The notes beneath the pieces were generated by a model. That model did no database searches and was not told where the DNA came from. It was given only the letters and a program-made list of their open reading frames with translations. From contig OZ244799.1 in assembly GCA_965219955.1 (NCBI GenBank), forward strand, positions 2,528,001 to 2,592,000: a stretch of DNA of 64,000 nt. The letters are read 5' to 3'. This DNA is from a bacterium (GTDB taxonomy: Bacteria > UBA8248). Positions 17,854-46,191 of the stretch are shown here, one piece after another (positions within the stretch are counted from its first letter, which is position 1; each line of letters starts with the position of its first letter). The position numbers and the translations under genes were made by a program.

Positions 17854-17952
17854 AGGGACGACCCTTATGGGTCGTCCTGCCCTCCGTGGTTGTCCTTCGT
17901 CTTCATCGGAACGAAGGCCTCCAACAGGACAGGCACGGAGGCCTGTCCCTAC
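17854..17952. repeat. Degenerate GTAG-type REP doublet
   Basis: ggacaggcacggaggcctgtccctac right arm and ccgtggttgtccttcgtc spacer, as in the other copies. Confidence 0.7.
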
Positions 17953-18017
17953 GGGCCGGAGGACGGACAACGCGAGGAGGGCCTGTCCCCGCGTTTCGTT
18001 GCATTCTCTCCACGCAC

Positions 18018-18047
18018 AAAAAAACCGGGGGGCCGAAGCCCCCCGGT
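18018..18047 (-). terminator. Intrinsic terminator of porin-like gene A
   Basis: accggggggc-cgaa-gccccccggt with an A7 tract; exact inverted copy at 24199-24228. Confidence 0.9.
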
Positions 18048-18088
18048 CGTCGTCGCGTCAGTTGAGGACGCGAGCGTCCTTCATGTTG

Positions 18089-19318: not shown

Positions 19319-19405
19319 GTGTATTTCTCCTCATCGAGGTTTCACAAAAAAATGTTGCCGTCTTCCTTCACATGTTCTATGTCGATGTTCTATGTCTTGG
19401 ATTTG

Positions 19406-19462
19406 TCAATTGTTTCTGCATCCGTGCTTCGTCGTCTGCAACAGGGCTTCTCGCTCTCGCAT
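19406..19462 (-). CDS. Putative 18-aa leader peptide MREREALLQTTKHGCRNN upstream of porin A
   Basis: GAGGAGAGGGGGTG immediately before ATG; conserved homolog at 22747-22806. Confidence 0.45.
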   Translation of the reverse strand: MREREALLQTTKHGCRNN

Positions 19463-19580
19463 CACCCCCTCTCCTCAATGCTGCCCCGCACGTCGACAAG
19501 GTCCTATCGAGCGAACCGATATTTGTCGCTTGAATACTTTCCCATTGAAGAAAACCGTCATTTCATTCCCCATTTCCCAA

Positions 19581-19609
19581 AGAATAGAAAAGATGATCCT
19601 CTTTGTCAA
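19581..19609 (-). promoter_or_regulatory. Sigma70 promoter for porin A
   Basis: TTGACA-17 bp-TATTCT on the minus strand, located where homology between the two porin leaders ends. Confidence 0.7.
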
Positions 19610-19971: not shown

Positions 19972-21144
19972 TCAGAATATATCTTCCGCGATACTCCCCG
20001 CAACCCGCTCCGCCGCCTCGTGCGCGGAATTGCGCGCCAGGTGCGCGTAACGCGCCGTGGTCTGCACGTGGGCGTGGCCAAGGAGCTTCGCGATGACGGG
20101 GAGCCCTTCTCCCAGCGCGAGCGCTCTCGAAGCGTAGGAATGGCGAAGGTCGTGGAGCCGCACGTCATCGAGACCCGCCCGCGCGCGGACGGGCCGCCAG
20201 ACGTGATCGAGGCTGCTCAGGCGCGCGCCCGGCTTCCTGCCGGAAATGACCCAGGGATTCCCCTCAACCCGGGGGAGGGCCGCCAGGAGCGCGACCGCCT
20301 GCGGCGGAAGCGGGACGACCCGCGCGCCCGTCTTGGAATCCGGCAGCCTCAGCTCACCCTCGTCCAGCGCCACGTCCTCCCAGCGGAGGGTGAGTATTTC
20401 GGACTTACGGCACCCGGTCAGCATCAGCAGGCGTATGGCGGCCAGGGCGGACGCAGGCGCCCCGCCCCGGTTCTCCATTTCTTCCAGAACGGATCCCAGG
20501 CGCGTAAACTCCTCATCCGTCAGGAACCGCTCCCTCTTGCGTTCGGGGTATTTCACGATCAGGCGGCAGGGGTTGCACCCCTCGGGCGCCAGGCCCCAGC
20601 TCTCGGCCAGCCTGTACATCGCATAGAGGATCCGGACGACCATGTTCGCAACAGCAGGCGTCTCGCAAAGGCCCTGGTGCAGTTCCGCCACCTGCGCCCG
20701 CTCCACCGCCATGATCGGCAGTTCGCCCAAAGCGGGCACGATGTGCTTCCGCACCACCGCCCTGGTCTTCGCGACGGTGCTCGGCTTACAGCGCACCGAG
20801 ACGTATTCGGTGAGATACCGCTCGGCGAGCGCCGCCACCCTGGGCCCGCCCGCGGGCTTCAGCCGCTTCGGGATTGCCTCCTCGCCCGCCTTGATACGGG
20901 CGATGATGAGCGCCGCCCTTTGGCGCGCCTGCTCGGCGCCGATCACGCCGTGGCGGCCCACCGCCACCCGCCTGGGCCCTCCCGGCCCCCGCGCCTGGGC
21001 GACGTAGACTTTTGAGCCGGTGGGATAGACCCTGACGCCGAAGCCTGTGAGATCCCGGTCCCAGAACACCGTATCCTTTTGAACCACAAGCTTCCCGACC
21101 GCCCGGTTCGAGAGCGTTTTCATAACGGGCTTCGCCGTTTTCAC
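19972..21144 (-). CDS. Tyrosine recombinase/integrase B1 (N-terminal arm-type DNA-binding domain)
   Basis: FWDRDLTGFGVRV arm domain; TGCRKSE, DSKTG, HDLRH, LLGH, TTARY catalytic set. GTG start overlaps the stop of A1 (GTGA). Confidence 0.93.
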   Translation of the reverse strand: MKTAKPVMKTLSNRAVGKLVVQKDTVFWDRDLTGFGVRVYPTGSKVYVAQARGPGGPRRVAVGRHGVIGAEQARQRAALIIARIKAGEEAIPKRLKPAGGPRVAALAERYLTEYVSVRCKPSTVAKTRAVVRKHIVPALGELPIMAVERAQVAELHQGLCETPAVANMVVRILYAMYRLAESWGLAPEGCNPCRLIVKYPERKRERFLTDEEFTRLGSVLEEMENRGGAPASALAAIRLLMLTGCRKSEILTLRWEDVALDEGELRLPDSKTGARVVPLPPQAVALLAALPRVEGNPWVISGRKPGARLSSLDHVWRPVRARAGLDDVRLHDLRHSYASRALALGEGLPVIAKLLGHAHVQTTARYAHLARNSAHEAAERVAGSIAEDIF

Positions 21145-22319
21145 TCGAGGTTCCCGTTCGTCAGGTGGGCGCCTATGCTCCCCCCCACCCGGGTGGCCGC
21201 CTCCTTCTCGGCCTTGAGCATCAGGTGCGTGTAGCGCGCCGTCGTCGTTACCGTCGCGTGTCCCAGGAGCTTGCCAATCGTGTAGAGGCTCTCGCCGAGC
21301 GCCAGAGCCCTTGACGCATAGGAGTGTCTCAGGTCGTGGAGCCGCAGGTCGGAGAGTCCCGCCCGCTCCCGGACAGGCCGCCAGTAGTAGTGAAGATCCG
21401 TAAGGTTCTTTCCCGGCTTCTGGCCGATGACCACCCATGGGTTGTCCGGTTGCCGGGGCAGCTTGTCGAGAAGCCCCCGCACGGGATTCGTCAGCGGAAC
21501 CATGCGGGGACCCGTCTTGGCGTCCCTGAGCCTGAGATCACCCGCCGTGCGGTCCACGTCGTCCCATTTGAGGCTCAGTATCTCGCTCCTCCGGCACCCG
21601 GTCAGCATGAGCAGCCTGATCGCCGTGATCGCAGGCGGCCAGATGGAGCCCGCCGCCTCGGCGTCTTTGAGCGACCGGCCCAGGCGACGGTATTCCTCGG
21701 ATGTCAGGAACCGCTCGCGCGGGCGCGTCCTGTAGAGCGTTAGTCTTCTGCACGGGTTCCGCCCGGGCGGGACCAGGCCCCACGCCTCGGCCAGGTTGAA
21801 CATCCTCGAGAGGAGATGGATCGACGTGTTGACCCGGCTCGGCGTATGGCGGAGGCGGTGCTGAAACGCGGTGAGTTCCGCCCGTCCGATCCGGGCCAGC
21901 GCCATCCCGCCCAGGACCGGCAGGACGTGTTTGTCCAGTATGGTGCGGTATTCCACGACGGTGCGCGGCTTCAGGTGCCTTTCCACGTAAACGCGCATGA
22001 AGCGCTCGGCAACCGCCGCCAGGGTGGGTTCCTCCACGGGCGGCTCAAGCCCGGGGTATTCGCCCCGCTTGATGCGGTCGATGACGAGGGCGGCCTGCTT
22101 TCTTGCCTCCCCGGTCGACAACGCCCCGTGCCGGCCTAAAGTAACGCGTTTTATCCCCCCGGGCCCGCGGGATTGCACCACGTAGGATTTCCTGCCCGCA
22201 GAGTGGACGCGCACCCCGAAGCCGGCCAGGTCCCGATCCCAGAAGAGGGTGTCCCGGTTCTTGGTTTTGAGCGCATCGACAGCGCGCTTGGTGAGCCTGA
22301 ACTCACTCCTTCTGGGCAT
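21141..22319 (-). CDS. Tyrosine recombinase/integrase A1 (N-terminal arm-type DNA-binding domain)
   Basis: LTKRAVDAL...FWDRDLAGFGVRV; TGCRRSE, DAKTG, HDLRH, LLGH, TTARY. Start ATG 22319 gives 392 aa, the same length as the paralog at 33366. Confidence 0.93.
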   Translation of the reverse strand: MPRRSEFRLTKRAVDALKTKNRDTLFWDRDLAGFGVRVHSAGRKSYVVQSRGPGGIKRVTLGRHGALSTGEARKQAALVIDRIKRGEYPGLEPPVEEPTLAAVAERFMRVYVERHLKPRTVVEYRTILDKHVLPVLGGMALARIGRAELTAFQHRLRHTPSRVNTSIHLLSRMFNLAEAWGLVPPGRNPCRRLTLYRTRPRERFLTSEEYRRLGRSLKDAEAAGSIWPPAITAIRLLMLTGCRRSEILSLKWDDVDRTAGDLRLRDAKTGPRMVPLTNPVRGLLDKLPRQPDNPWVVIGQKPGKNLTDLHYYWRPVRERAGLSDLRLHDLRHSYASRALALGESLYTIGKLLGHATVTTTARYTHLMLKAEKEAATRVGGSIGAHLTNGNLE

Positions 22320-22346
22320 GGCCCCCCTCGCTGGGCATGGCCCCTT

Positions 22347-22461
22347 CGCTCGACATGTCATCAAAACGCATATCAGCGACATCAGTCGAGAGCGCGTTTA
22401 CGCATGAACAGGCACGCTCTCTCACGCTCGACATGTCATCAAAACGCATATCAGCGGCATC
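22347..22461. repeat. 37-bp direct repeat (78-bp period) in the recombinase promoter/leader
   Basis: cgctcgacatgtcatcaaaacgcatatcagcgRcatc at 22347-22383 and 22425-22461; the core is also present once upstream of the second recombinase pair. Confidence 0.85.
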
Positions 22462-22473
22462 GAATGTGAGCGT

Positions 22474-22502
22474 ATTCAAGCACAAACACGGCAGGCGCGC
22501 AA
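22474..22502 (-). promoter_or_regulatory. Putative promoter of recombinase pair 1
   Basis: TTGCGC-17 bp-TTGAAT, positionally aligned with the TTGAAT-17-TATAAT promoter at 33250. Confidence 0.45.
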
Positions 22503-22746
22503 GAGGCGACGATAAGGAAAATATCGAATTAAAGCAAATAATAACAAATCTTTACATTGCATGAGTACGCTCAGTCGCAACATCCCCGGAGTGATCAGTT
22601 CCTTTCAGTATTACATCTATTCTTTGAGAGATAAAGCACGGAACGGCTGTTTTTTTCAGATGGGGAATTGTCTGCATAAGCGGCAAATACCGGTTCGCAA
22701 GATGGAACCTTGTCGGCGTACGGGGCGGTATGGAGGAGAGGGGGTG

Positions 22747-22806
22747 ATGCGGGAGCGGGAAGTCCTGTCGCAGACGACGAAGTACGGATGCAGCGACACC
22801 GATTAA
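22747..22806 (+). CDS. Putative 19-aa leader peptide MREREVLSQTTKYGCSDTD upstream of porin B
   Basis: Same purine-rich RBS and reading frame as 19406-19462, with two synonymous CGA/CGG changes. Confidence 0.45.
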   Translation: MREREVLSQTTKYGCSDTD

Positions 22807-22873
22807 ACCAGACACAGAACACGAAGGAAGACGGCAACATTTTTTAGTGAAACCTCAATGAGGAGAAATACAC

Positions 22874-24157
22874 ATGAGGAAACTTCTGTTAGCACTATTC
22901 GCGATGGCGCTCGTCGTGGCGTTCACCGCGCCCTCGTACGCGGCCGACCTCAAGTACAGCGGCTTCTTCCGGGTGCGTGGATCCAGCGAAAACGTCGAAG
23001 GTGACGACGGAGACAAGAAAAATTATCTGGACGCGCTCATCCGACCGCGCTTCACCGCGAAGAGCGGCGCCGTCACGGCCACATATGAACTCGACTTCTC
23101 GTCGTCGTATACTGGAAAACTTGACGATGATAACGAATTAGCGACTAATACGCATGCTGGCGCGAACGGCGGATTCGGCACCGCTGGTCGGCACAATGTG
23201 GGTACGAACCGCTGGGTGATCGACTTCGCCGTTCCGGGCAGCGCGCTCCGCGTTCGCATGGGCCGGACGGACTACTTCTCGCCGGACAAGGAAATCTTCG
23301 ACAGCGGCGGTAAGCACCGTTTGCCGGGCATTGCGCTTTACGGCAAGTTGAGCAAGAACATGTCGCTCAGCGCGTTCATGACCAAATCGAAAGAAGACGC
23401 GGGTGGCAGCAACGATGACAAGACGGATTACTACGTCGGCATGGGCATCAAGGTGAACCCGACGCTCACGCTCACGCCGTGGGCGGCCAACACCAGAGAC
23501 GCTGCGGCCGGCGGCTATGACTACAGCTTCCTCGGTTTCCACGCCAAGACCAAGGTGGGCATCCTGAACGTAAACGGTTCTATCGTCATCCAAGAGGGTG
23601 ACCTCTCAGTCAAGGACGGAGTCCAAAAGGAACTCTCGGGTTGGGCCGTACTGCTCAGGACTTCCACCAGCCTGGGCAAACTGAAGCTGAGCGGAAACCT
23701 CACCATGCTCTCCGGCGATGACGGCTCCAAGGCCGGCGAGGACGGCAGCTTCCAGACGCCTCGGGGAGGTAGTTCCGGCTGGTTCGTCGGCGGCCACATC
23801 ATGAGTTCGCGCCGCTGGACGACTCTTGGCAACAGCATCAGAGACAGAGAACTGAAGAAAATGAACGGCGCGGTCGTGATCGAGGGACTGGCCGACTTCA
23901 AGGTCAGCAAAACTCTGACGCTGGCTGGCGGCGTATCCCTTTATAATTCCGCCGAACCTTCCCTCGCGCCGGACACGATGGACGCGAAGGAATTCGGCAC
24001 CGAGCTCAACGCCGCTTTCAAGTGGAAGATCCACTCGAACCTCGAGCTTCGCGGTGTGGGCGCCGTTATTCTGCGCGGCGACTACGGCAGAAAAGTTGAC
24101 GAGGGTGAGATCGACGACGGCTGGGCGGTCGGCTGGACGCTGCGCCACATCTTCTAG
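22874..24157 (+). CDS. Outer-membrane beta-barrel (porin-like) protein B, paralog of A
   Basis: Same signal peptide type and near-identical C-terminal ~65 aa; differences cluster in short loop-like segments. Confidence 0.8.
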   Translation: MRKLLLALFAMALVVAFTAPSYAADLKYSGFFRVRGSSENVEGDDGDKKNYLDALIRPRFTAKSGAVTATYELDFSSSYTGKLDDDNELATNTHAGANGGFGTAGRHNVGTNRWVIDFAVPGSALRVRMGRTDYFSPDKEIFDSGGKHRLPGIALYGKLSKNMSLSAFMTKSKEDAGGSNDDKTDYYVGMGIKVNPTLTLTPWAANTRDAAAGGYDYSFLGFHAKTKVGILNVNGSIVIQEGDLSVKDGVQKELSGWAVLLRTSTSLGKLKLSGNLTMLSGDDGSKAGEDGSFQTPRGGSSGWFVGGHIMSSRRWTTLGNSIRDRELKKMNGAVVIEGLADFKVSKTLTLAGGVSLYNSAEPSLAPDTMDAKEFGTELNAAFKWKIHSNLELRGVGAVILRGDYGRKVDEGEIDDGWAVGWTLRHIF

Positions 24158-24198
24158 CAGCATGATGGACGCTCGCGTCCTCACCTGACGCGACGACG

Positions 24199-24228
24199 AC
24201 CGGGGGGCTTCGGCCCCCCGGTTTTTTT
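24199..24228 (+). terminator. Intrinsic terminator of porin-like gene B
   Basis: accggggggc-ttcg-gccccccggt-tttttt. Confidence 0.9.
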
Positions 24229-24336
24229 GTGCGTGGATGTATGCGCGGCGTCCTCGCGACTTTTTTCTATTATCGCTCCCCCCTTAGGATCATTCTCTCT
24301 TCGACCGGAAATGAATGTTTGTGCAGGGGGCGCAAT

Positions 24337-24527
24337 GGGGCTGTTGAAAAAGCCTGATGCGGGATCGGCGGCAAGGAGGTTCACGCGGCGCAGACGTGAT
24401 GGTTTTGTAGGGACAGGCCTCCGTGCCTGTCCTGCTCTTCGTGGTTGTCCTTCGTCAGGACAGGCACGGAGGCCTGTCCCTACGGCGAACAATCTCGAAG
24501 GTCGGACAGGACTTTTTCAACAACCCC
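24337..24527. repeat. MITE-like element with TIRs enclosing a GTAG-type REP doublet
   Basis: ggggctgttgaaaaa...tttttcaacaacccc; internal perfect arms gtagggacaggcctccgtgcctgtcc / ggacaggcacggaggcctgtccctac (24407-24483). Confidence 0.8.
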
Positions 24528-24542
24528 GCCCTCTCGAATCGA

Positions 24543-24569
24543 CACGCATTTCCCCGCAATTGCCGTCAT
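24543..24569 (+). repeat. 27-bp motif shared with 33022-33048
   Basis: cacgcatttccccgcaWttgccgtcat, 26/27 identical. Confidence 0.75.
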
Positions 24570-24923
24570 TCCCAAATCCGCGGACTGCGCTATCGTGCGC
24601 GCGACGCGGGGAAGGGGTTTTTCCCCGGCGGATTGAGACGCACGGAGAGGAAGCTTTCGCATGGGATGCAGTGATGGAACGGGGAAGAATTACGAAAATG
24701 GATTCGGGAACGGCGCGGAAATAAAAATAATGATATTTTCTGTAAAATTCGATAAATTCAGGGGGTTTTTCGATAAATTCCTGAAATTCACTTCCCGCTT
24801 AACGGTTTGTAATACAAAGGGTTATCATATAAATATGAGCGTCGTGCACTCAGATAAGGCGGTGAAAAAAGTTTTCGGCGCCCCCGCATTTGCCCGCGCC
24901 GGGAGCCGGCGGCGCAAAGAACG

Positions 24924-26852
24924 CTATTCCCTGATCTTGTAGAAGAAAAGCTGGCTCTTCGCGCCGACCAACGGTCTCGAACTCGTCGTCGCCACCACGA
25001 GATCGTCGTAGCCGTCGTTGTCCGCGTCGCCGAAGGTGAAATCCACGATCCCCCGGCCCAGTTTTCTCGAGCGCCAGGTCTCGGTCAAACCGCTGCCGTC
25101 CCAGAGCAGGCTCGCGATCTGCCCGCTCGAAACGCCCAGGCCCGGCGCAATGGAGGCAACGTATTCGTTGCGGATCACCAGAACCTCATCCACCCCGTCC
25201 CTGTCGACGTCTTCAACCAGCACGCGCGAGCGTATGGGGAGATCCGGTGTATGAACCCTGTCACCGGTGTTTTCCGTATTGGCCAGGGAGAAGAATCTAT
25301 GGACGGGCGCGCCGTAGGTTTCAGAGCTCGAGTAGATATCCTGGCCGCTCCTCGAGAACACCCTCAGCCTGTCGTCCTTCCCGACCTCGATGACTTCCTG
25401 CGAGCCGTCCCTGTTGAGGTCCCACAAGCCGAAGCCCAGTATCGTCAAATCCGGCGGAAGCGCATAAGGGGCGGCGGGCGCGAGTTTCCCCCCCGACCAG
25501 CGATAGCTGCGGATGGGGCCGTCGAAAGCGCTCTCGATCCCTTCACTCTGCCCCAGAAGCAGATAGGCTTCCGAGCCAGGAATCTTCTTGCCCTTCTCGG
25601 GCCGCCGCACCCGTATCAGGCGATAAAAAGTCCTGTCGTTCCGGACGAGGGGCGTGAACTTCCCGCCCTTGAACTGCAGGATCATCGAGAACAACTCGTT
25701 CGAGCGATAAGAGGCGAGGTAGAACTCGGGCGCGCCGTCTCCGTTCATGTCGGCGACGTCGAGCCAGCGGAAGTCGTTCGCCGCCCCGCCGTCGAAGCGG
25801 GCGACCTCGCGCATCCGGTTCTCCTCGAAGCGGTTGACGATGACCTCGGTCGGCGTGATGAGAACGACTTCGTTTTTCCCGTCCCCGTCCACGTCCGCCA
25901 CGGACAGCCCCCGGAATACGGCCTTGTCGAACGAGTAGCTTTTCTGGCCGCCTCCTCTGTTTGGTACGCCCTCGCGGGCGAGCACGAAATTCTCGTTCGC
26001 GGGTCCTGCGCGCGTCTCGCCGCCGCCTCGCTTGAGTTCCTGCACCGTGGGCGGGCCCTGTTCGAAGGGCAGTTCATCCGCAATGGCCACGGCCTTGAAG
26101 AGTTCTTCCTTCGTGGTGAGGGACAAAAGGCGGGTGGAGAGAATCTTCTTCCCCCGGATTTCGCGGAGCTCGTTCTCGAGCGCCATGTCGCTCCGCACCT
26201 GGTTTCGCAGGCGAATCGGATTCTCTTTTTCAAGAATTTCATCGGTGGCGACACCCGTCTCGAGGAGCCATACCTGGAGCCTGTCCACGTCGTATACGTC
26301 GAAGCGCCCGCTCCTCAGGAGCTGGCGTCCGAGTTCCCTCGTGAGCGTCTCCATGCTGACGGCTTCTTTCGTCTGATTGACGAAAGGCAGTATCGCCAGG
26401 CGAATTTTCGAGGCGGACATGCGCACCGTGTCCTTGACGCGCGGCGAGAGTTGGCCGCCCGGCGCAAGGCGGACAAGACGCGCGATGGAGAATTTCTCCC
26501 GCACCTCGACGACCTCGATCTCGCCTACCTCCTCTTCCAGCTTGCCGAGAACGACGCCCGTCGTCGGGTGGCGAAACGGCGCGCCCTCGCGGTAGACGCT
26601 CAACTTGACGCCCTTGACCACCTCATCCTTCTCGCCGAGGCTCAAGTAGAGATCCGCCCCTCTGACGGCGACCACCGCGCCGCGCAGATTCGGGAATCTC
26701 TGGTGCAGCTTTTCGCTGATGAGACCGAGGGCCTTGCGGTAGTCGTTCTCCTGGGCGTGGGTCGAGCCGCCGGATGCGCAGAGGACAATCATGAAGGCCA
26801 GCAGGAAGGCCGGCGCCTTCTTAAGGAGGTGAGAGAACATGAAAAACCCCAT
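24924..26852 (-). CDS. Exported protein with FlgT/CsgG-like N-terminal region and FG-GAP/VCBS beta-propeller repeats
   Basis: Signal peptide; DVDGDGKNEVV, DMNGDGAPEF, DLNRDGSQEV, DVDRDGVDEV, DADNDGYDDLV repeats. Start uncertain. Confidence 0.72.
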   Translation of the reverse strand: MGFFMFSHLLKKAPAFLLAFMIVLCASGGSTHAQENDYRKALGLISEKLHQRFPNLRGAVVAVRGADLYLSLGEKDEVVKGVKLSVYREGAPFRHPTTGVVLGKLEEEVGEIEVVEVREKFSIARLVRLAPGGQLSPRVKDTVRMSASKIRLAILPFVNQTKEAVSMETLTRELGRQLLRSGRFDVYDVDRLQVWLLETGVATDEILEKENPIRLRNQVRSDMALENELREIRGKKILSTRLLSLTTKEELFKAVAIADELPFEQGPPTVQELKRGGGETRAGPANENFVLAREGVPNRGGGQKSYSFDKAVFRGLSVADVDGDGKNEVVLITPTEVIVNRFEENRMREVARFDGGAANDFRWLDVADMNGDGAPEFYLASYRSNELFSMILQFKGGKFTPLVRNDRTFYRLIRVRRPEKGKKIPGSEAYLLLGQSEGIESAFDGPIRSYRWSGGKLAPAAPYALPPDLTILGFGLWDLNRDGSQEVIEVGKDDRLRVFSRSGQDIYSSSETYGAPVHRFFSLANTENTGDRVHTPDLPIRSRVLVEDVDRDGVDEVLVIRNEYVASIAPGLGVSSGQIASLLWDGSGLTETWRSRKLGRGIVDFTFGDADNDGYDDLVVATTSSRPLVGAKSQLFFYKIRE

Positions 26853-27062
26853 ATCAGTAACGTGTTTTAGAGACTCCGGTCGAGCCGCCAGCGCTCTGAA
26901 GCAGAGCATGGCCCCGGATAATCAATCAGCCGTTGTATGATATCATGATTTCGAAGACAGAAAGCCCCAAACACCCTCAAATATACCGCGTAAGAAGCAG
27001 AAAGCAAATTTATTCAGGCCGTTCGGAAAGCCGGTCCGTCCAGGCGCAGGCTGCGTTTCGCC

Positions 27063-28958
27063 TCATGGCCGGGTGAGTCCCAGCTCTCTTTTGAGTTTCG
27101 GGTGAAGCGGCGAGCCGAACCTGCCGGCCTCTCTCGCGTGTCTTTGCGCACCGGCGCGGTCGCCTTCCAGGTACAGGGCCAGCGCCATATTGTGGTGGAC
27201 GCCGCCATGGCCCGGCTCTAGCCTGAGCGCCGCCCTGAACTGCGCTATCGCCAGGCGCCTCAAGCCCGCCTTGAGATACAGGGTGCCCAGGTTGAAGCGC
27301 GCCTCCACCAGCGTGGGCTTGAGGCTTATCGCACGCTCGAAATGGGGTCTGGCCAGATCGCCGCGCTCAGCGCCCATATGCAGCGCCCCCAGGGCCAGGT
27401 GCGCCTCGGCGTTCTCATCGTTGAGCCGCAGGGCGCGCTTCAAGGAAGTTTCGGCGCCGGCCGCATCGCCGCTTTGCATCTGCGCTATCCCCAAATCCAC
27501 CCAGGCGTAATCGTAGACGGGATAAATCTCGACGGATTTCCTGAGCGGCGCAACGGCTTCGCGGAACCTGTTCCGGTCGATCAGGGCCTGCCCGTACACC
27601 CTGAGCGCGCGCGCGCTGTTTGGGGACACCTCCGCCGTACGCCGCCAGAAACGAAGCGCATCGCCCCAGTCCTGGTTTCGTTTGAGCGTCAGCGCGCCGA
27701 AGGTCAGGCAGGCGATTACAAGCAGCGACGCGGCGATTCGCCAGTCCCTTTTCGTGAGCAAGACGCCCGCCGTAGGAACGAGGGCGATCAGAAAGCCGGC
27801 CGAGGGAAGATACAGCACCCGCTCCGCCATGATGGTGCCTATGGGGATCAACAGATTGCTCACGGGCAGATACGCGCCGATGAAAACGACCAGTCCGAAA
27901 GCGACCCACGGCATGTCTTTCCTCAGACGCCAGGCGGCGTAGCCCCACGCCAGAAAACCCAGTGCCCCGGCCAGCATCCAAAGTGTGGCTTCCACTCCTT
28001 CCACCGGAATCTGCGCGAAGGAATAATCCATGCTCAACGGCCACGGCCAGACCAGCAGCTTGAAATATCGGCCCAGGACGCCGACCGCGCCCAGGATTCG
28101 CTCGCCGGCCGGCATCAGCGCCAGGACGTTGTCGAGTTTCGACGGGGGATAAGGGCGCGCCAGTACGCCTAAGGCGGCATATCGCATCCACACGTAGACG
28201 ACGAGGACGAGGACGAGCGCGCAGACGGCGATGAGCGTGTGCCTGAGAGGCGGTCGCTCGGTCTCTCCCGATACATAGCGGCCCCAGAGCCACCACAAAA
28301 GGGCGCTGAAAAGCAGGGCGACGCCGATCTCCTTGGACAGCAGCGCAAAGAGGCAAAGCGCGCACGTGAGGCCGACGGGCGCGAGCACCCCTCGACAAGA
28401 GAGGCCTTCTTCGCCCCCCCTCCTGCGGTTCCCCTCCGCAGCGCCCGGTTTCGCCCCGGGGAGCGCGACGCCCATCAGAAGGCCCAATCCCCCGAACACG
28501 CCGGCGGCGGCCATCAGGTCGGCGCGCGCGACGACGGCGTTCACCGCCTCGGTATGAACCGGATGAAGGGCGAACAGCAGGGCGACGGCTCCCGCCGCAC
28601 CGCGCGAGAGCCCGAAACGTATGCACAGCCAGAACAGCGCGAGCGAGGCGAGGGCGTGAAGCAAGGCGTTGATGATTCTGTAGCCGAGCGGATCCAGGCC
28701 GCCCACCGCGTGGTTCAGCGCGAAAGAGGCTATGGTGAGGGGCCGGTAGAGGCGGTCTCTTCTCTCGTTCGTCTCTATCACGGCCCAGTAGTCGTGCTGA
28801 AAGGCTTCCAGCAGGCGGCCGCTCTCGCGGACGAGGGGATTCTCGCCGATGATGGCGATGTCGTCATGCAGAAACGGGTTCGAAAACGTGCCTGCGAAGA
28901 TGAAAAACGCGGCGCCGGCGATGGCGCAGGCCCAACCCCATTTCACGACCGGCTGCAT
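27063..28958 (-). CDS. TMTC-like GT-C membrane glycosyltransferase with C-terminal TPR repeats
   Basis: FLHDD..I..N, YRPL, LFALHPVHTEAV, SKE, PLSMDY, AERVLYLPS, then TPR helices. Confidence 0.85.
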   Translation of the reverse strand: MQPVVKWGWACAIAGAAFFIFAGTFSNPFLHDDIAIIGENPLVRESGRLLEAFQHDYWAVIETNERRDRLYRPLTIASFALNHAVGGLDPLGYRIINALLHALASLALFWLCIRFGLSRGAAGAVALLFALHPVHTEAVNAVVARADLMAAAGVFGGLGLLMGVALPGAKPGAAEGNRRRGGEEGLSCRGVLAPVGLTCALCLFALLSKEIGVALLFSALLWWLWGRYVSGETERPPLRHTLIAVCALVLVLVVYVWMRYAALGVLARPYPPSKLDNVLALMPAGERILGAVGVLGRYFKLLVWPWPLSMDYSFAQIPVEGVEATLWMLAGALGFLAWGYAAWRLRKDMPWVAFGLVVFIGAYLPVSNLLIPIGTIMAERVLYLPSAGFLIALVPTAGVLLTKRDWRIAASLLVIACLTFGALTLKRNQDWGDALRFWRRTAEVSPNSARALRVYGQALIDRNRFREAVAPLRKSVEIYPVYDYAWVDLGIAQMQSGDAAGAETSLKRALRLNDENAEAHLALGALHMGAERGDLARPHFERAISLKPTLVEARFNLGTLYLKAGLRRLAIAQFRAALRLEPGHGGVHHNMALALYLEGDRAGAQRHAREAGRFGSPLHPKLKRELGLTRP

Positions 28959-29298
28959 CGAACCCCCAACACGCAATTCAATCCCTCGTCACGCCCCAAC
29001 CCGGGCAGTACCGATGATTCGCCAAACCCATCGCCTCAACTCGCACATCACTTACCGGAACAACCGGGCTTTCCGCCATGGCGACGGCAACCGCCCGAGA
29101 TAGAACGGTATCCGCATGAAAAGGCTCCCGGTGCCGCGGCTTGGCGCAAGTAATTTCAGAGCCAGCCGAATCATCATGCCGCCATCATGACAACAAAACT
29201 TCCGTCCCGCCACCGAGATTTGTCGATAAAATCACCTTTATGGTTCGGTTTTCCTTTTGACTCCCGGTGAAACGACTGCTAACCTTCGTATTTGCAAG

Positions 29299-29374
29299 TT
29301 CGCTGGGGGTGCCTTGCAGGCTGAGAACAAACCCTTCGAACCTGAACCGGTTAGCGCCGGCGTAGGGAAGCGAC
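29299..29374 (+). ncRNA. TPP riboswitch
   Basis: GGGGTGC...GGCTGAGA...ACCC..GAACCTGA..CGG....GCCGGCGTAGGGAAG consensus upstream of thiC. Confidence 0.95.
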
Positions 29375-29415
29375 AGGTCTTCCACATCCTCCGGTTTCCC
29401 TTCGCCGACATGTGA

Positions 29416-31278
<1,863 letters not shown>

Positions 31279-31305
31279 GCCGAACGATAACCACCACTCT
31301 GCATC

Positions 31306-31341
31306 AAACCCCGCCTGGGCCGACGCCCGGGTGGGGTTTTT
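31306..31341 (+). terminator. Intrinsic terminator after thiC
   Basis: aaaccccgcctgggc...gcccgggtggggttttt. Confidence 0.75.
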
Positions 31342-31426
31342 GTTGTCATTCGAAAATCACCACAAGACTTTGGCGCCGGATTGATGATAAATTCCTCCTA
31401 TCGAAACCGCGCAGACAGGAGCCGTC

Positions 31427-32485
31427 ATGACGCTGAGGATGGGGGTGTGGGCGCCCGTGTGGGGCACGTTTCTGGGGCGGATCGAAAAACCCGAGACGGT
31501 GAAAGAGGCCTCATTCGCCCACAATGCGCGCTACATTCAGCGCGCGGAAGAATTGGGCTTCGAGACCACCCTGCTGCTCGACAGGAGCCTCAACAGCATC
31601 AAGGGCCTGGGCGCGCCCGTTCTGGAGGCCTGGATCACGGCGGCGGCGCTGGCGCCCATCACGAAGAAAATCGAACTCATCATCGCCGCCAAGAGCGCCT
31701 ACCGCCACCCCTCGCTCGTCGCCCAGATGGGGGCGAACATCGACTGCATCAGCGGGGGGCGCTTCGCCATCAACATCGTCTCGGGCTGGTGGGCGCTGGA
31801 AAACGAGATGGCGGGCATCCCCTTCCCCCCGCACGATGAGCGCTACGATCTCTCCGAAGAAGTGATGCACATCCTCAAATCCTACTGGACGAAGGAGCGC
31901 TTCAGCTTCAAGGGCAGGTATTTCGAAATCACCGACGGCGTCACCGCGCCCAAACCCGTCCGAAAGCCCTGGCCCACGTTCTATTTCGGGGGCGAATCGA
32001 CCGCCGCCGTGAAGCTGGCGGGCAAGGCCGCGGACGTTTTCCTGTTCAACGGCCGTTCGCTCGCGGACGCGAGGGAGTTGATGGCCGCCGTGAACCATGA
32101 AGCGCAGGCTTGCGGGAGATCCATCCGCCACGGGATGAGCTCGTTCATCGTCTGCCGCGACACCGACGAGGAGGCCGGGGCGGAACTCGAGCGCCTGTTC
32201 TCGCTCATCACCGAGCCGCCCAGGCTCACGGGCGTCGACAGGGCCGCCCAGCACAGGAAAACGAGCGCGAAGGCCGGCGGCGTCGGTTCGAACGGCGGCA
32301 CGGCGACGGGCCTCGTCGGCTCGCCCGAGACCATCGCCGAGCGCATCATGGCGTTTCACGAGGCGGGGGTGGAGTTGTTCCTGCTCCAGTTCCATCCCAT
32401 GTTCGAGGAGATGGAGCGCTTCGCCTCGCAGGTCATGCCCCTCCTGCCCCTGGGCGGGAAAGCGCCCGGGGCGGCGAAAGCCTAG
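31427..32485 (+). CDS. LLM-class flavin-dependent monooxygenase (SsuD/SfnG-like)
   Basis: AEELGF, LEAWITAAALA, SGGRFAINIVSGW, YFGGES, GLVGSPETIAERI. Confidence 0.88.
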   Translation: MTLRMGVWAPVWGTFLGRIEKPETVKEASFAHNARYIQRAEELGFETTLLLDRSLNSIKGLGAPVLEAWITAAALAPITKKIELIIAAKSAYRHPSLVAQMGANIDCISGGRFAINIVSGWWALENEMAGIPFPPHDERYDLSEEVMHILKSYWTKERFSFKGRYFEITDGVTAPKPVRKPWPTFYFGGESTAAVKLAGKAADVFLFNGRSLADARELMAAVNHEAQACGRSIRHGMSSFIVCRDTDEEAGAELERLFSLITEPPRLTGVDRAAQHRKTSAKAGGVGSNGGTATGLVGSPETIAERIMAFHEAGVELFLLQFHPMFEEMERFASQVMPLLPLGGKAPGAAKA

Positions 32486-32492
32486 CTCCCGC

Positions 32493-32966
32493 TCACTCCA
32501 GGATTACGCGCGCGCCCAGCCCGAAGCCGTTTCTCAGGAACCAGCCCTGGTTCACCTCCAGCACCCGGCGGACCTTGTGGCGCGACGTGTAGGAGGGAAT
32601 CGGCGTCCCCGGCCTGTGGGGCTGTAAGTGTATGATTTCCAGCACCTCTCCGCTCTTGTCGATGAAGGCGAGCGAGAGCGGAATCCGCGTGTTCTTCATC
32701 CAGAAGAACCGCCGCGCGTCATCCTCGTAGACGAAGAGCATCCCGGCGTTCTCGGCCAGCCGCTCCCGGCCCATCAAGCCCTGCGTGCGGGCTTTGGGGG
32801 TATTTGCGATCTCGACCGAAAGCGTCGCCTCGCGCCCCTCCTGGGCGATGCGCACCACGCCGCGCTCGAAAGTCTGCGCGGCGGACGCGCCCATGAGCAG
32901 CGCCCAGACGAGCGAGGCGGCGCAGGCAATCCTGATTCCCGAAATGGACCGCACGTATAACCTCAT
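32493..32966 (-). CDS. DUF192 family exported protein
   Basis: VEIA...RTQGLMGR...GMLFVY...FWMKNTRIPL...VLEVNQG. Start uncertain. Confidence 0.9.
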   Translation of the reverse strand: MRLYVRSISGIRIACAASLVWALLMGASAAQTFERGVVRIAQEGREATLSVEIANTPKARTQGLMGRERLAENAGMLFVYEDDARRFFWMKNTRIPLSLAFIDKSGEVLEIIHLQPHRPGTPIPSYTSRHKVRRVLEVNQGWFLRNGFGLGARVILE

Positions 32967-33189
32967 ATAGAACAGCTGCTTAAAGAGGCCGGCGAAGGCC
33001 AACCACACCGGATATTTTCACCACGCATTTCCCCGCATTTGCCGTCATCGAGCCGCTCTCCGGTTATGGCAGGATTCCCCTGTACTGCGCCCCGGCGGCG
33101 TCTCCTCCCCCCGAAACAATTTGCGGTTATTTATCGAAAGACACGTTAAATATTTCACCCCACGGACAATCGTACGACTGGATACCCTG

Positions 33190-33233
33190 AAGCATGATAA
33201 ATTGCTGTATTCAAAGCGGTAATTATCATGCTT
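33190..33233. promoter_or_regulatory. 11-bp perfect inverted repeat upstream of the integrase promoter
   Basis: AAGCATGATAA-22 bp-TTATCATGCTT followed by a T-run; operator, terminator or recombination site. Confidence 0.5.
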
Positions 33234-33249
33234 TCTTTTTCGCCTCTCC

Positions 33250-33278
33250 TTGAATTTACGTCATATTTACGCTATAAT
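33250..33278 (+). promoter_or_regulatory. Sigma70 promoter of recombinase pair 2
   Basis: TTGAAT-17 bp-TATAAT. Confidence 0.75.
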
Positions 33279-33365
33279 GGACTCATATTTGATGCCGGAC
33301 GTATGCGTTTTGATTACGGATCGTCCATATCCTCCGGCTTGTGACACAATTTCCGGGGAGCGCCC

Positions 33366-34544
33366 ATGCCGAAAAGAAGCGAACGCAAGCTTACCAAACG
33401 CGTCGTCGACGCGCTATCCGTCGAGAAGGACGACGGCGTCTTCTGGGACCGGGAACTGGCGGGTTTCGGGGTGCGGGTCTACGCCACGGGCCGGAAGGTC
33501 TACGTGGTGCAATCGAGAGGGCCGTGGGGCCCCAGGCGCGTGACGCTGGGCCGGCACGGCGAGATGTCCACTGATGAGGCGAGGAAACAAGCCGCACTCG
33601 TCATCGACCGCATCAAGCGGGGCGAGGCACCCGAACCCAGGCCGCCCGAGGCGGAACCCACCGTGGCCGTCCTTTGCGATCGCTTCATGCGCGACCACGT
33701 CGAGACGCACTGCAAGCCCGATACCGCCGCGACCTACCGCTCCTATATCGGGAACCACATCCTTCCGGCGCTGGGCGGGAAGGCGCTCGCCGATGTCGGC
33801 CGGGCGGAGGTATCGGCGCTTCATCACGACCTGCGCGCGACGCCCGTCGCGGCCAACGTGATCCTGGGACTGCTCTCGAAGATGTTCAAGATGGCCGAGG
33901 CGTGGGGCCTGGTTCCGGCCGGGGAGAACCCCTGCCGGGGGCTTCGCCGCTACAGGACGCGCAAGCGGGAGCGGTTCCTGACGCCAGAAGAGTTCCGCCG
34001 CCTCGGAGGTGCGCTCCGTGACCTGGAGGTAGAGGGGAAGACGTGGCCCCCTGCCGTCGCAGCGATCAGGCTCCTGGCGCTGACCGGGTGCAGGCGGGGC
34101 GAGATACTGGACTTGCACTGGGACGACGTGGACCGCACGGCGGGGGAGTTGAGGCTCAGGGACGCCAAGACGGGTCCGCGCATGGTTCCCCTGACCAAAC
34201 CCGTATTGAGGGTGCTGGAGGGGGTTCCCCGCTCGCCGGACGATTCCTGGGTGATCTCCAGAGGGAACGGGAAGGACCGCCCGTTGAGCCTCTCCTACTA
34301 CTGGGAGGCCGTGAGGGAGCGGGCGGGGTTTCATGATGTCCGCATTCATGACCTCCGGCACTCGTACGCCAGCCGGGCGCTGGCGCTCGGCGAGAGTCTG
34401 TCTGCGATCGGCAGGCTGCTCGGCCACCGTCACGTGGTGAGCACGGCGCGCTACGCGCACCTGATGCGAGAGGCCGAGAAGGCGGCGGCCGCCCGCGTGG
34501 GCGAGAGCATCGGCGTCCATGTCACGAACGGGAGGGTCGAGTGA
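33366..34544 (+). CDS. Tyrosine recombinase/integrase A2
   Basis: Arm domain plus TGCRRGE, DAKTG, HDLRH, LLGH, STARY. Confidence 0.94.
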   Translation: MPKRSERKLTKRVVDALSVEKDDGVFWDRELAGFGVRVYATGRKVYVVQSRGPWGPRRVTLGRHGEMSTDEARKQAALVIDRIKRGEAPEPRPPEAEPTVAVLCDRFMRDHVETHCKPDTAATYRSYIGNHILPALGGKALADVGRAEVSALHHDLRATPVAANVILGLLSKMFKMAEAWGLVPAGENPCRGLRRYRTRKRERFLTPEEFRRLGGALRDLEVEGKTWPPAVAAIRLLALTGCRRGEILDLHWDDVDRTAGELRLRDAKTGPRMVPLTKPVLRVLEGVPRSPDDSWVISRGNGKDRPLSLSYYWEAVRERAGFHDVRIHDLRHSYASRALALGESLSAIGRLLGHRHVVSTARYAHLMREAEKAAAARVGESIGVHVTNGRVE

Positions 34545-35710
34545 TGACGAAGTCCATGATGAAAACGCTCTCGAACCGTTGGGTCGCGAAACTGAAAGTC
34601 AAGAAGGACACCGTGTATTGGGATCGCGATCTCACCGGCTTCGGGGTGCGGGTCTACCCCACGGGGAGCAAGGTCTATATCGCCCAGGCGCGCGGAACCG
34701 AAGGACCGAAACGGGTGGCGGTGGGCCGCCACGGCGTGATCCATGCCGATCAGGCGCGCAAGCGCGCGGCGCTCGTCATCGCGCGCATCAAGGCGGGCGA
34801 GGAACCTGTGCCTGAGCCGATGAAGCCCGCCTGCGGTCCCACGGTGGCCGAGCTCGCAAGGCGCTATCTCGCCGAATACGTATCCGTGCGGTGCAAGCCG
34901 CGCACCGTGAAGACGCTCCGCTCCGTGGTCGGCAGGAACATCGTGCCCGCGCTGGGCGCGATGCCGATATCCGCGGTCGAGCGCAAACACGTGGCGGAAC
35001 TCCACCAGCGGCTGAGCGCCACGCCCGCGGCGGCGAACCATGCCGTCCGGGCGCTGTCCGCGATGTACCGCCTCGCAGGTGAATGGGGTCTCGTGCCCGA
35101 GGGCGTGAATCCGTGCCGCGCCATCGCCGAATACCCGGTCGGCCGCCGGGAGCGCTTCCTCACCGAGGCGGAATTCATGCGTCTGGGAAAAACGCTTGAC
35201 GAGATAGAGGCCGGGGGCGGCGCGTCCGCGAGTGCTGTGGCGGCGATCAGGCTCCTGATCCTGACCGGGTGCCGGAAGTCGGAGGTCCTCACGCTGCGCT
35301 GGGAGGAGTTGGCGCTCGATCAAGCGGAACTGCGGCTCTCAGACTCCAAGACGGGCCCGCGGGTCGTTTCGCTCTCAGAGCCCGCGGTGAAACTCCTCGC
35401 GGGTCTGCCGCGCACCCCCGGCAATCCCTGGGTGCTCCCCGGCAGGAAGCCGGGTACGCACCTTCGGAAGCTCGATGACGCCTGGCAGTCCGTCCGCTCG
35501 CGCGCGGGGCTTCACGACGTGCGCCTCCATGACCTGCGCCATTCGTTCGCCTCGAGAGCTCTCGCGCTCGGCGAGGGGCTTTCCACGATAGGGAAATTGC
35601 TCGGCCACGCCCGGATCGAGACCACCTCGCGCTACGCGCATCTCGCGCGCGATTCGGTGCGCGAGTCCGCCGAGCGGGTCGCCGCGAGCATCGCCGAAGA
35701 CCTGCTGTAG
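34541..35710 (+). CDS. Tyrosine recombinase/integrase B2
   Basis: Arm domain plus TGCRKSE, DSKTG, HDLRH, LLGH, TTSRY; GTGA overlap with A2. Confidence 0.94.
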   Translation: MMTKSMMKTLSNRWVAKLKVKKDTVYWDRDLTGFGVRVYPTGSKVYIAQARGTEGPKRVAVGRHGVIHADQARKRAALVIARIKAGEEPVPEPMKPACGPTVAELARRYLAEYVSVRCKPRTVKTLRSVVGRNIVPALGAMPISAVERKHVAELHQRLSATPAAANHAVRALSAMYRLAGEWGLVPEGVNPCRAIAEYPVGRRERFLTEAEFMRLGKTLDEIEAGGGASASAVAAIRLLILTGCRKSEVLTLRWEELALDQAELRLSDSKTGPRVVSLSEPAVKLLAGLPRTPGNPWVLPGRKPGTHLRKLDDAWQSVRSRAGLHDVRLHDLRHSFASRALALGEGLSTIGKLLGHARIETTSRYAHLARDSVRESAERVAASIAEDLL

Positions 35711-38631: not shown

Positions 38632-38632
38632 T

Positions 38633-43983: not shown

Positions 43984-43994
43984 GGATGTTTTTC

Positions 43995-46182: not shown

Positions 46183-46191
46183 GTTCGTTCC

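Follow-up and report, generated by a model that had tools for sequence, protein, structure and literature searches.

The stretch of 64,000 nucleotides analysed here (the window) carries two pairs of integrase genes, one on each strand, and at both loci the TGA stop of integrase A (392 aa) overlaps the GTG start of integrase B (389–390 aa). The four genes are:

19972..21144, minus strand: integrase B1, 390 aa; its GTG, inside GTGA, overlaps the A1 stop (Pfam matches; falls in the B clade)
21141..22319, minus strand: integrase A1, 392 aa (translation; three Pfam domains, for arm binding, core binding and catalysis; member of the A clade)
33366..34544, plus strand: integrase A2, 392 aa (translation, Pfam, phylogeny)
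34541..35710, plus strand: integrase B2, 389 aa; begins at a GTG that overlaps the A2 stop (Pfam, phylogeny)

Longer open reading frames of 413 and 488 aa are upstream extensions of integrase genes and were rejected as genes. A1 and A2 are 65.3% identical (256/392) and B1 and B2 71.5% (278/389), whereas identities between A and B are 51.0–52.6%. All four proteins score above the cut-offs for Phage_integrase (PF00589; E 5e-18 to 1.5e-23), Arm-DNA-bind_3 (PF13356; E 3e-8 to 8e-11) and Phage_int_SAM_3 (PF14659). Across 47 A and 43 B sequences, each of the catalytic R, K, HxxR, H and Y columns is conserved in at least 90%, and in the 20-row alignments all are invariant; judged by these residues, both partners look active. 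The same 47 A and 43 B sequences are told apart by 13 fixed differences and by distinct C-terminal tails. In the two pairs of the window, A ends ...TNGxxE and B ...IAEDxx. All this agrees with the preliminary description of the locus, which had given the coordinates and common architecture of the two pairs, the closer likeness of A1 to A2 and of B1 to B2 than of A to B, the R-K-HxxR-H-Y set with an N-terminal arm-type domain in all four proteins, and the endings TNGxxE and IAEDx.

Pair 2 had been described as heading an ICE, and an F-type conjugation set indeed lies downstream of it. The features of this element, together with an unoccupied copy of its target, are:

24768..24778, minus strand: unoccupied copy of the attB-bearing repeat, the 11-mer followed by an intact right repeat half
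33129..33139, plus strand: attL core of the pair 2 ICE, ATTTATCGAAA, an identity stretch with the dispersed repeat serving as attB
35794..58486, minus strand: ICE conjugation block (Pfam)
58869..64000, plus strand: further ICE genes, for a ParB-like protein, a HATPase protein and DUF2958 (Pfam); the ICE continues beyond the window
116875-116885 (window-equivalent positions): attR of the pair 2 ICE, the ATTTATCGAAA repeat

The conjugation block encodes a TrwC relaxase, a TrwB-type coupling protein, TraG, F, N, U and W, an S26 peptidase, TraC, TrbI/TraB, TraK, E and L, and an HTH_17 protein (57749-58486) which we take to be a candidate excision factor, the fold being one known from excisionases. 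Between the att repeats there are thus genes for an integrase, a relaxase, a coupling protein and mating-pair formation, the hallmarks of an ICE. The element measures 83.7 kb, has the same core at both ends and extends past the window end; since the interval also contains insertion sequences and a nested pair, it is composite. A right end at window-equivalent position 75720 was rejected, as it marks only the end of similarity to a sister element. This sister element, of 35,774 bp, has ATTTATCGAAA at both attL and attR, and its P arm is homologous to that of the pair 2 ICE, both bearing TTTGATTACGG.

The 11-bp core occurs 59 times genome-wide against 0.26 expected and lies inside a dispersed short repeat of about 47 copies. 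The empty site of the sister element, seen in a sister species (G011), holds one copy of ATTTATCGAAA, its left side matching attL at 36 of 40 positions and its right side attR at 74 of 80. The att core and the empty site are established for the pair 2 subfamily only. In contigs from three other studies the sequence breaks off at 33129 or 33139; the joints listed for contigs of public runs lie in repeats or link paralogous integrase genes, and are not used as evidence of excision or inversion. A tRNA gene was rejected as the target, there being none in the 64-kb window, and so was a 27-nt direct repeat (24543-24569 and 33022-33048) as an att pair, being a dispersed repeat of about 30 copies. 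Inspection of attP by eye gave no clear asymmetric or inverted pair of core half-sites.

Is the pairing of A with B a general feature? The host genome contains six A–B pairs and one distant pair (pair 7). Searching five complete related genomes with B2 yielded 96 matches, grouped into 51 clusters: 33 intact A-then-B pairs, nine with a degraded member, eight lone fragments and a single lone full-length gene. A precedes B in 42 of 44 fetched loci (22/24 and 20/20), the two others being a contig end and a broken copy, and the junction is an NTGA overlap in 37 of 48 cases. A two-gene unit that recurs in this way throughout the host genome and its relatives is far beyond chance. Within the genus, sixteen genomes of 3.3–4.6 Mb bear pairs, up to about 10 intact ones each, and five have none (four of 2.9–3.1 Mb, one of 3.7 Mb); the class-level and phylum-level searches covered the same 51 genomes.

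In the phylogeny, 48 first genes fall into a single clade (SH-aLRT 98), in which a solitary A from a contig end (L022) is also placed, and the sister clade unites 48 second genes (97; the two together 99). The subfamilies of the two clades mirror each other, and the identity matrices of A and B correlate with r = 0.905 over 42 pairs, a value reached in none of 500 partner shuffles (maximum 0.24). One module (L024) joins an A from one subfamily to a B from another, which indicates that partners are at least sometimes exchangeable. Tight linkage alone would yield co-inheritance and mirrored trees. The closest single-gene relative, on a Tritonibacter plasmid, is 45–46% identical to A and to B, and this integrase presumably works alone. 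We regard the A–B pairing and its age as established. The duo proposed at the outset is, in this lineage, practically obligate; its homologues do not mostly occur singly, and A and B are old sister clades with mirrored subfamilies, not recent independent tandem duplications.

The conserved unit is larger than the two genes. It consists of a leader of about 220 bp, A and B; similarity between copies begins some 205–240 bp upstream of A and often ends within about 10 bp of the B stop, after which the cargo differs. Relaxase or T4SS genes follow in 11 of 38 loci; the remaining loci carry adhesin-like, ankyrin or transport genes or insertion sequences, and several elements have HTH_17 genes. Module boundaries this sharp, next to so variable a cargo, are established, and they uphold the earlier view of a portable module. 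The leaders contain these features:

22320..22615, minus strand: pair 1 leader, its outer end abutting the inverted porin copy (leader alignment)
33140..33365, plus strand: pair 2 leader, proposed P' arm (kept across 20 leaders; motif scan)
33250-33278, plus strand: promoter-like TTGAAT-17-TATAAT in the pair 2 leader (sequence; leader conservation)
33288-33297 and 33309-33318, plus strand: two candidate arm-type motifs in the pair 2 leader (motif scan)

Alignment of 20 leaders revealed a conserved promoter-like sequence and two conserved motifs, TTTGATGCCG and TTTGATTACG. The form TTTGATKMCR occurs four times in the window, always within the two leaders, against 0.53 expected. The pair 1 leader has a 78-bp internal duplication (22347-22410 and 22425-22488) with one TTTGATGACA motif per copy. 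The motifs, which lie downstream of the -10 hexamer but ahead of the start codon, are predicted to be arm-type binding sites.

We propose that A and B are two subunits of one integration module, probably acting as a heteromeric complex of the lambda Int type, and that pair 1 is a stranded copy of the same module; we give this reading a probability of about 55%. Leader, A and B would be expressed as one translationally coupled operon, and the leader, through its arm-type motifs, would at the same time provide the attachment site with its P' arm. The module stands at one end of quite different elements, namely a conjugative ICE, mobilisable elements with a relaxase only, and adhesin-like or ankyrin islands. 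Members of the pair 2 subfamily insert at the ATTTATCGAAA core within the short repeat, whose roughly 47 copies offer many alternative landing sites; this fits the presence of up to about 10 intact pairs per genome. As with XerC and XerD, each partner may be bound to one core half-site and be responsible for one of the two pairs of strand exchanges. We infer that the motifs serve as arm sites, that the module regulates itself, that A and B form a heteromer, which is likely, and that strand exchange is divided between them. A predicted complex of A with B scored 0.51 against 0.00 for the best control, a result rated as weak support: of 157 solved complexes 116 reached the mark, as did 2 of 215 mismatches, and scores that passed at 0.60 or below comprised 18 of the 157 solved complexes and both passing mismatches. 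The runs had at least 53% of contacts in common, with a partner pLDDT of at least 79. Because multimers of tyrosine recombinases have already been solved, the prediction may merely reproduce known structures, and the pass does not separate hetero- from homo-oligomers. A more specific form of the proposal is that A and B are an obligate heterotetrameric arm-dependent integrase which splits the two strand exchanges, reads two kinds of arm site and, by targeting the repeat, has seeded up to about 10 islands per genome, with pair 1 as a domesticated version; this we hold only tentatively, at somewhat less than even confidence.

Could A and B instead be separate homo-oligomers with divided roles, both useful to the element, one for integration and one for excision as in FimB/FimE, or each with its own att specificity? 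Both have full catalytic sets and arm domains, so each could in principle act alone; single-gene relatives exist, L024 shows partners swapped between subfamilies, and the difference between TTTGATGCCG and TTTGATTACG could mean two independent binding specificities. However, the frequent NTGA coupling, the fixed order and the ratio of 33 pairs to one lone gene suggest that the two are needed jointly and in step. The HTH_17 genes, should they encode excision factors as we presume from the fold, would also make a second integrase for direction less necessary, and we consider separate enzymes rather unlikely. It might also be that one partner is mainly architectural or regulatory, shaping the intasome or repressing the operon, while the other does the chemistry. 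Given the position of the leader motifs, binding there would repress the operon, and recombinase folds that lack the catalytic motif are known elsewhere, in Tfp of SEs and GinC of GInts (PMC10214605). Since all six catalytic positions are conserved in A and in B alike, and dN/dS is equally low for A1 and B1, this seems to us very unlikely.

Pair 1 raises questions of its own. As the preliminary description held, no transfer genes occur at its locus; the pair has no cargo at all and is flanked by inverted copies of a porin-like gene:

17874..19588, minus strand: left arm of the inverted duplication, in ancestral position and orientation (inverted repeats)
19581..19609, minus strand: promoter-like TTGACA-17-TATTCT of the left porin gene (10/12 matches)
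22616..24485, plus strand: right arm of the inverted duplication, with a porin-like gene at 22874-24157 (plus strand)

The left arm holds a porin-like gene (18089-19318, minus strand) with its terminator and 5' region and is collinear with the single porin locus of three other genomes (G008, G001 and G007). The left promoter straddles the inner end of this arm, and both its hexamers are conserved in G008; in the right arm the -10 is kept and the -35 is absent. The same arrangement is found in G011 and G016, and among 53 pairs, with 9 kb viewed on each side, long inverted repeats occur only at this locus (G000, G011 and G016). Compared with its G011 and G016 orthologues, pair 1 has a dN/dS of 0.15–0.38, and it is conserved under purifying selection in three species. 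Perhaps, then, A1 and B1 are domesticated recombinases within an invertible 3-kb segment, which move the -35 from the left to the right porin gene and so switch between two variants. A unique stretch of 3,027 bp (19589-22615) does lie between inverted arms of some 1.7–1.9 kb that are 72–100% complementary by segment, the porin -35 falls just inside this stretch with a -10 in each arm, both genes are intact and under the selection just described, and the arm motifs are doubled in the pair 1 leader. Yet G000, G011 and G016 all have the one orientation, and no other was seen in public contigs, which reveal no rare variants. Furthermore, ancestral sequence reaches the B1 stop at the left junction, leaving one novel junction only, and the two boundaries have no core-like site in common besides the arms. 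We think an invertible switch clearly unlikely and favour, as part of our main proposal, a module that was stranded without cargo in the porin locus and is still under selection.

A single integrase is usually enough for a mobile element; why should some require two? Arm-type integrases are textbook single-protein recombinases, and to our knowledge XerCD, which has no arm domains, is the only well-understood two-subunit tyrosine recombinase. The A–B module is a natural case of this question. Old and strictly paired, with about 50 sequenced variants, a defined att site and a leader, it would permit a direct test of a heteromeric arm-dependent intasome and of what such an enzyme gains, be it in control of direction, in the choice of target or in regulation. 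The module also accounts for genome architecture in an uncultured, sponge-associated lineage. The islands headed by the pairs carry eukaryote-like repeat proteins (ankyrin, cadherin, LRR and Calx-beta), which are typical of sponge symbionts, and the repeat-borne att site provides a simple rule for locating the ends of such islands.

The preliminary description had assumed that known multi-recombinase units differ from the duo in architecture and that typical ICEs use one integrase. The first part holds; the second is weakened, as ICEPmu1, ICEMh1 and ICEHpa1 of the Pasteurellaceae carry, according to excerpts of their published descriptions, two paralogous tyrosine recombinases beside a relaxase gene, 47% identical to each other in ICEHpa1 (PMC6861422, PMC7438473). 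In the same excerpts these ICEs are flanked by direct repeats of 11–13 bp and their integrases are described as Xer-like and targeting tRNA-Leu; the authors suspect joint action and state that 'other experiments are necessary' (PMC6861422, PMC7438473). They are a published, uncharacterised precedent for two integrases, which we liken to A–B by these descriptions only. SEs (intA-tfp-intB-srap), GInts (ginABCD), RIT trios and Tn554 resemble A–B in having at one end a movement module with two or more tyrosine recombinase genes, often with short overlaps (PMC10214605, PMC3414803). Each of them depends on further conserved genes as well (tfp and srap; ginC and ginD; a third recombinase; tnpC), whereas in A–B the two genes overlap with nothing between them and copies cease to resemble each other at the B stop. 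That the module might belong to a family already described had been considered, and RIT, Tn554, Xer, SE, GInt and BIM do not accommodate it. RIT was rejected because there are two recombinases, not three, followed by an opposite-strand relaxase (pair 2) or ancestral intergenic DNA (pair 1); Tn554 (tnpA, a long tnpB, a small tnpC) because A and B are both about 390 aa with no conserved third gene; SE because no gene lies between A and B and none is conserved after B (PMC10214605); GInt, with four genes, because there are only two; BIM, which has one recombinase and a conserved SMC-domain protein (PMC3414803), because both genes are recombinases; and IntDes, with a shifted first Arg and a first His changed to Tyr (PMC8138268), because A and B have the canonical HDLRHS. 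Nor do the 'two integrase genes' beside tmexCD-toprJ match the module.

Tandem pairs of arm-type integrases also occur on proteobacterial plasmids, those of Aurantiacibacter, Polymorphobacter, Paracoccus (pTAV1) and Photobacterium, with a toxin-antitoxin pair after the integrases in three of the four. These pairs and pair 7 are adjacent genes with overlaps of 4–11 nt, as in A–B; the Pfam arm domain is present in five of six scanned genes (pair 7, Aurantiacibacter, Photobacterium), the first gene of pair 7 being the one without it. Their identity to A and B, however, is only 33–43%, and the tree places them in a clade of their own (support 98), so that the tandem state either arose more than once or has been homogenised by concerted evolution.

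In build, A and B are closest to integrases of the lambda Int/P4 type, known from phages, ICEs and genomic islands, with the same arm-binding, core-binding and catalytic parts; the lambda Int chain 1z1b aligns over profile positions 51–363. The likeness extends to a gene at the element end, a short core at attL and attR and candidate arm-type motifs in both arms. In contrast to that type, A–B elements use two translationally coupled paralogous integrases, always together, and their target here is not a tRNA gene but a dispersed repeat. XerC and XerD are two paralogues that form one heterotetramer in which each performs one pair of strand exchanges, and they are the working model that we propose for A and B. 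Against the NCBIfam models A and B score 50.6 and 59.8 bits for XerC (cut-off 335.15) and 49.6 and 64.2 bits for XerD (cut-off 329.6), and they differ from XerC/XerD in having arm-binding domains, in being element-borne and multi-copy, and in having att rather than dif as their site.

Two integrase pairs lie in the window, each made of a first gene (A) and a second gene (B), and the four genes are placed as follows:

22319-21141, (-) strand: A1, first gene of pair 1
21144-19972, (-) strand: B1, second gene of pair 1, with its GTG start in GTGA
33366-34544, (+) strand: A2, first gene of pair 2
34541-35710, (+) strand: B2, second gene of pair 2, with its GTG start in GTGA

These positions bear out the preliminary description, as does the coupling, since each locus has a GTGA that contains the TGA stop of A and whose GTG starts B. 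The two A proteins (65.3% identity) and the two B proteins (71.5%) are, as claimed, more alike than A is to B (51.0-52.6%). We also found the anticipated arm-type build in all four proteins (Arm-DNA-bind_3, Phage_int_SAM_3 and Phage_integrase), together with the full catalytic set of Arg, Lys, HxxR, His and Tyr. A and B are told apart by 13 fixed differing positions, the loop preceding the HxxR box and the C-terminal tails. The transfer genes ascribed to pair 2 are present downstream of it (a TrwC relaxase, a TrwB-type coupling protein and an F-type mating apparatus), and none occurs in the surroundings of pair 1, again as described. The core segment between the pairs carries a TPP riboswitch (29295-29385; 71.4 bits, gathering score 54.3) upstream of thiC (29515-31278). 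A coiled-coil open reading frame at 17161-17703 contains tandem 33-nt repeats (17449-17624), and related repeats are scattered in the sister genomes.

The integrase pair is real, old and widespread. The window belongs to a genome of 4.28 Mb in a single contig, in which tblastn revealed six A-B pairs, one of them with a frameshifted A, along with one distant tandem pair and a few fragments. When every match of B2 in five complete genomes was taken, the 96 matches fell into 51 clusters: 33 intact A-then-B pairs, nine pairs with one or both members broken, eight lone fragments and one full-length gene without a partner, which agrees with the claim of a conserved duo. The A-then-B order was seen in 22 of 24 fetched loci of one set and in 20 of 20 of another, the exceptions being L022, at a contig end, and L023, a broken copy. 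Start and stop overlap as NTGA at 37 of 48 junctions (ATGA 24, GTGA 12, TTGA 1); at the other 11, A stops with TAG or TAA and B starts a few bases beyond. Among 51 genomes of 15 genera sampled across the phylum, A2 had matches at E <= 1e-80 in 19 genomes from three genera. Within the genus, sixteen genomes of 3.3-4.6 Mb have 2-23 such matches each; five others, four of 2.9-3.1 Mb and one of 3.7 Mb, gave none at this threshold, and likewise one assembly rounded to 8 Mb. Pair content and genome size go together across the genus. The metagenomes carrying the stretch are mostly from sponge, marine and coral sources.

A maximum-likelihood tree inferred from 111 sequences (quick IQ-TREE, LG+G4) resolved the separate A and B clades that the preliminary description had foreseen, with the same subfamilies repeated in both. 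One clade (SH-aLRT 98) unites the 48 first genes with a lone contig-end A, and its sister comprises all 48 second genes (support 97; 99 for both jointly). This topology points to one old duplication as the source of A and B in this clade. Pairwise identities among A proteins follow those among their partner B proteins (r = 0.905, 42 pairs), a value reached in none of 500 partner shuffles (maximum 0.24); as such a correlation is expected from linkage alone, it is evidence of co-inheritance and not of contact. One locus, L024, is a recombinant module, its A belonging to the subfamily of pair 4, a further pair of this genome, and its B to that of pair 2.

Outside the lineage, the best plasmid matches are single Rhodobacterales genes, 45-47% identical to A and to B. 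Six regions of more distant plasmid matches were inspected, two with single genes and four with tandem pairs overlapping by 4-10 nt (Aurantiacibacter, Polymorphobacter, Paracoccus pTAV1 and Photobacterium). Those four pairs and the distant tandem pair of our genome form a separate clade (support 98), in which four of the five first genes cluster together. The separate placement suggests that either tandem arm-type pairs have more than one origin or their likeness has been kept by concerted evolution. In three of the four plasmid pairs (L030, L031, L032) a toxin-antitoxin gene pair directly follows the second integrase (RelE/ParE, HipA, BrnT/BrnA). The distant pair (L071; genome positions 1869119-1871690; 379 and 480 aa, 11-nt overlap) immediately follows a copy of the 71-75 kb segment belonging to the ICE, the conjugative element headed by pair 2. 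Its first gene has relatives at 71-76%, the few named ones being labelled as MAGs from other phyla (Rhodospirillales, Gammaproteobacteria and Bryobacterales).

How far does the portable module extend? Similarity between copies begins about 205-240 bp upstream of A and in many comparisons stops within about 10 bp of the B stop. Twenty of these upstream leaders align well and have in common promoter-like hexamers (TTGCAT-17-TAnAAT), and the block just 3' of them contains TTTGATGCCG and TTTGATTACG. The motif TTTGATKMCR occurs four times in the window, always within the two leaders, against 0.53 expected, and none of 100 shuffles reached four. For the cargo, up to three open reading frames within 9 kb downstream of B were scanned at 38 loci, leaving aside two orthologues of pair 1 and two loci with no qualifying frame. 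A TrwC relaxase was found in 11 and a coupling protein in six; elsewhere we observed very large Calx-beta, cadherin or LRR proteins, an ankyrin protein, ABC transport genes, regulators and many transposases. Since cargo differs so widely, the leader-A-B module is the common head of very different islands, and the claim of portability stands. Very large Calx-beta, cadherin, LRR and Spondin_N proteins and an 891-aa ankyrin-repeat protein are encoded at L010, L011, L014, L016, L041 and 90034-96039 in window numbering continued past its end (window-equivalent). Eukaryote-like repeat proteins of such kinds are known from sponge symbionts.

Relative to a 3.1-Mb sister genome, the region from about 32.9 kb of the window to 130.6 kb is an insertion. 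Contigs from three unrelated sponge or marine studies end at 33129 when coming from the element side or at 33139 from the core side, and the 11 bases spanning 33129-33139 are ATTTATCGAAA. A sister element elsewhere in the genome is headed by pair 3, whose A and B share 85% and 94% identity with those of pair 2. It carries ATTTATCGAAA 237 bp before its A, with a second copy 35,774 bp downstream. The corresponding site of G011, the closest relative, is empty with one copy of ATTTATCGAAA; its left 40 bases agree with attL at 36 positions and with attR at 8, and its right 80 bases with attR at 74 and with attL at 18. The proposal that att sites could be derived from flanks thus yielded an 11-bp core, for the pair 2 subfamily alone. 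Where base composition predicts 0.26 copies of this core, the genome holds 59. About 47 of these lie within one dispersed short repeat, and an unoccupied copy is at 24768-24778. This repeat family, found genome-wide and in the window at 24407-24485, 24543-24569, 24751-24778 and 33022-33139, has on its left a 25-nt motif (about 30 copies), and on its right ATTTATC recurs at intervals of about 21 nt. Upstream of pair 6, another A-B pair, is a different repeat that is far more abundant.

The right end of the ICE lies beyond the window at window-equivalent 116875-116885, 83,746 bp from attL, and its P arm, which contains TTTGATTACGG, shares about 300 bases of homology with the P arm of the sister element. 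The interval holds a 43-kb conjugative backbone, insertion sequences, a 2001-aa adhesin-like gene, a serine recombinase and a further A-B pair, contents that mark the ICE as composite. The nested pair (pair 5; window-equivalent 101116-103459, (-) strand) has the opposite orientation and lies among IS256-, IS110- and IS66-type transposase genes, a serine recombinase gene and a DruA gene.

In three related genomes (G008, G001, G007) a single porin-like gene lies between serC and an FG-GAP gene. At the pair 1 locus the left porin-like gene (18089-19318, (-) strand) retains the ancestral upstream region as far as the B1 stop, followed by B1, A1, a 296-bp leader with a 78-bp internal duplication, and then:

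22616-24485: inverted porin copy, including the terminator and 270 bp of the 5' region

G008 conserves the two hexamers of the porin promoter (TTGACA-17-TATTCT). At 22595-22623, the right gene has TCAGTT in place of the -35 TTGACA seen in the left copy and in G008; the right copy ends between -10 and -35, so that the right gene keeps the -10 and lacks the -35, and the duplication breakpoint split the promoter. Our guess at the origin of the inverted duplication, which would fit the junctions, is that an aberrant excision took the adjacent porin gene and was followed by re-insertion. The same arrangement occurs in G011 (95.8% identical, collinear over 12 kb) and G016, and contigs from three other studies bridge it. 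Its presence in three species, among which A1 and B1 have dN/dS of 0.15-0.38, argues that the cargo-less pair 1 is old, settled at its site and subject to continuing selection.

Judged by domain build, position at the element end, the short repeated core and motifs on both arms, the pair has the traits of a lambda/P4-type integrase system. On the simplest reading, A and B would be two paralogous subunits, always made together, of one heteromeric enzyme. A rival reading makes them two homomeric enzymes that share out the roles. When A(95-392) was folded with B(95-389), the complex scored 0.51 against 0.00 for the best control, rated 'weak support', a result that does not separate hetero- from homo-oligomer. 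The runs have at least 53% of contacts in common, with partner pLDDT of at least 79. Of 157 solved complexes, 116 passed the mark, as did two of 215 mismatches, and passing scores of 0.60 or less came from only 18 of those 157 complexes and from both passing mismatches; as recombinase multimers have already been solved, the pass may stem from structures that the model had learned. It may also be that one partner is catalytic and the other architectural; this is less favoured by the catalytic residues, each of which is conserved in 90% or more of the 47 A and of the 43 B sequences. The heteromer is our proposal, and the mechanism of the pair should be directly testable by experiment.

Neither A nor B reached the cut-off of the Xer models. 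Nor did the module match an already described family, a possibility raised in the preliminary description, as far as the available portions of the published accounts set RIT, Tn554, SEs, GInts and BIM apart. According to those portions (PMC3414803, PMC10214605), RIT needs three recombinases, Tn554 tnpABC, SEs intA-tfp-intB-srap and GInts ginABCD, and BIM combines one recombinase with an SMC protein, whereas the pair module has no third recombinase, no such gene sets and no SMC gene. IntDes, in the accessible part of its description (PMC8138268), has altered catalytic residues, unlike A and B, whose set is complete. The 'two integrase genes' mentioned beside tmexCD-toprJ in excerpts of PMC8547460 and PMC11448381 were considered as the same module and rejected, as they appear to be SE genes according to passages of PMC10214605 and a preprint listing. 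In the full-text literature searched, which lies outside most subscription journals and supplementary files, no account came up of a module consisting solely of two arm-type integrases. Going by its published description, the ICEPmu1/ICEMh1/ICEHpa1 group, with two paralogous integrases beside a relaxase, comes closest to the pair.
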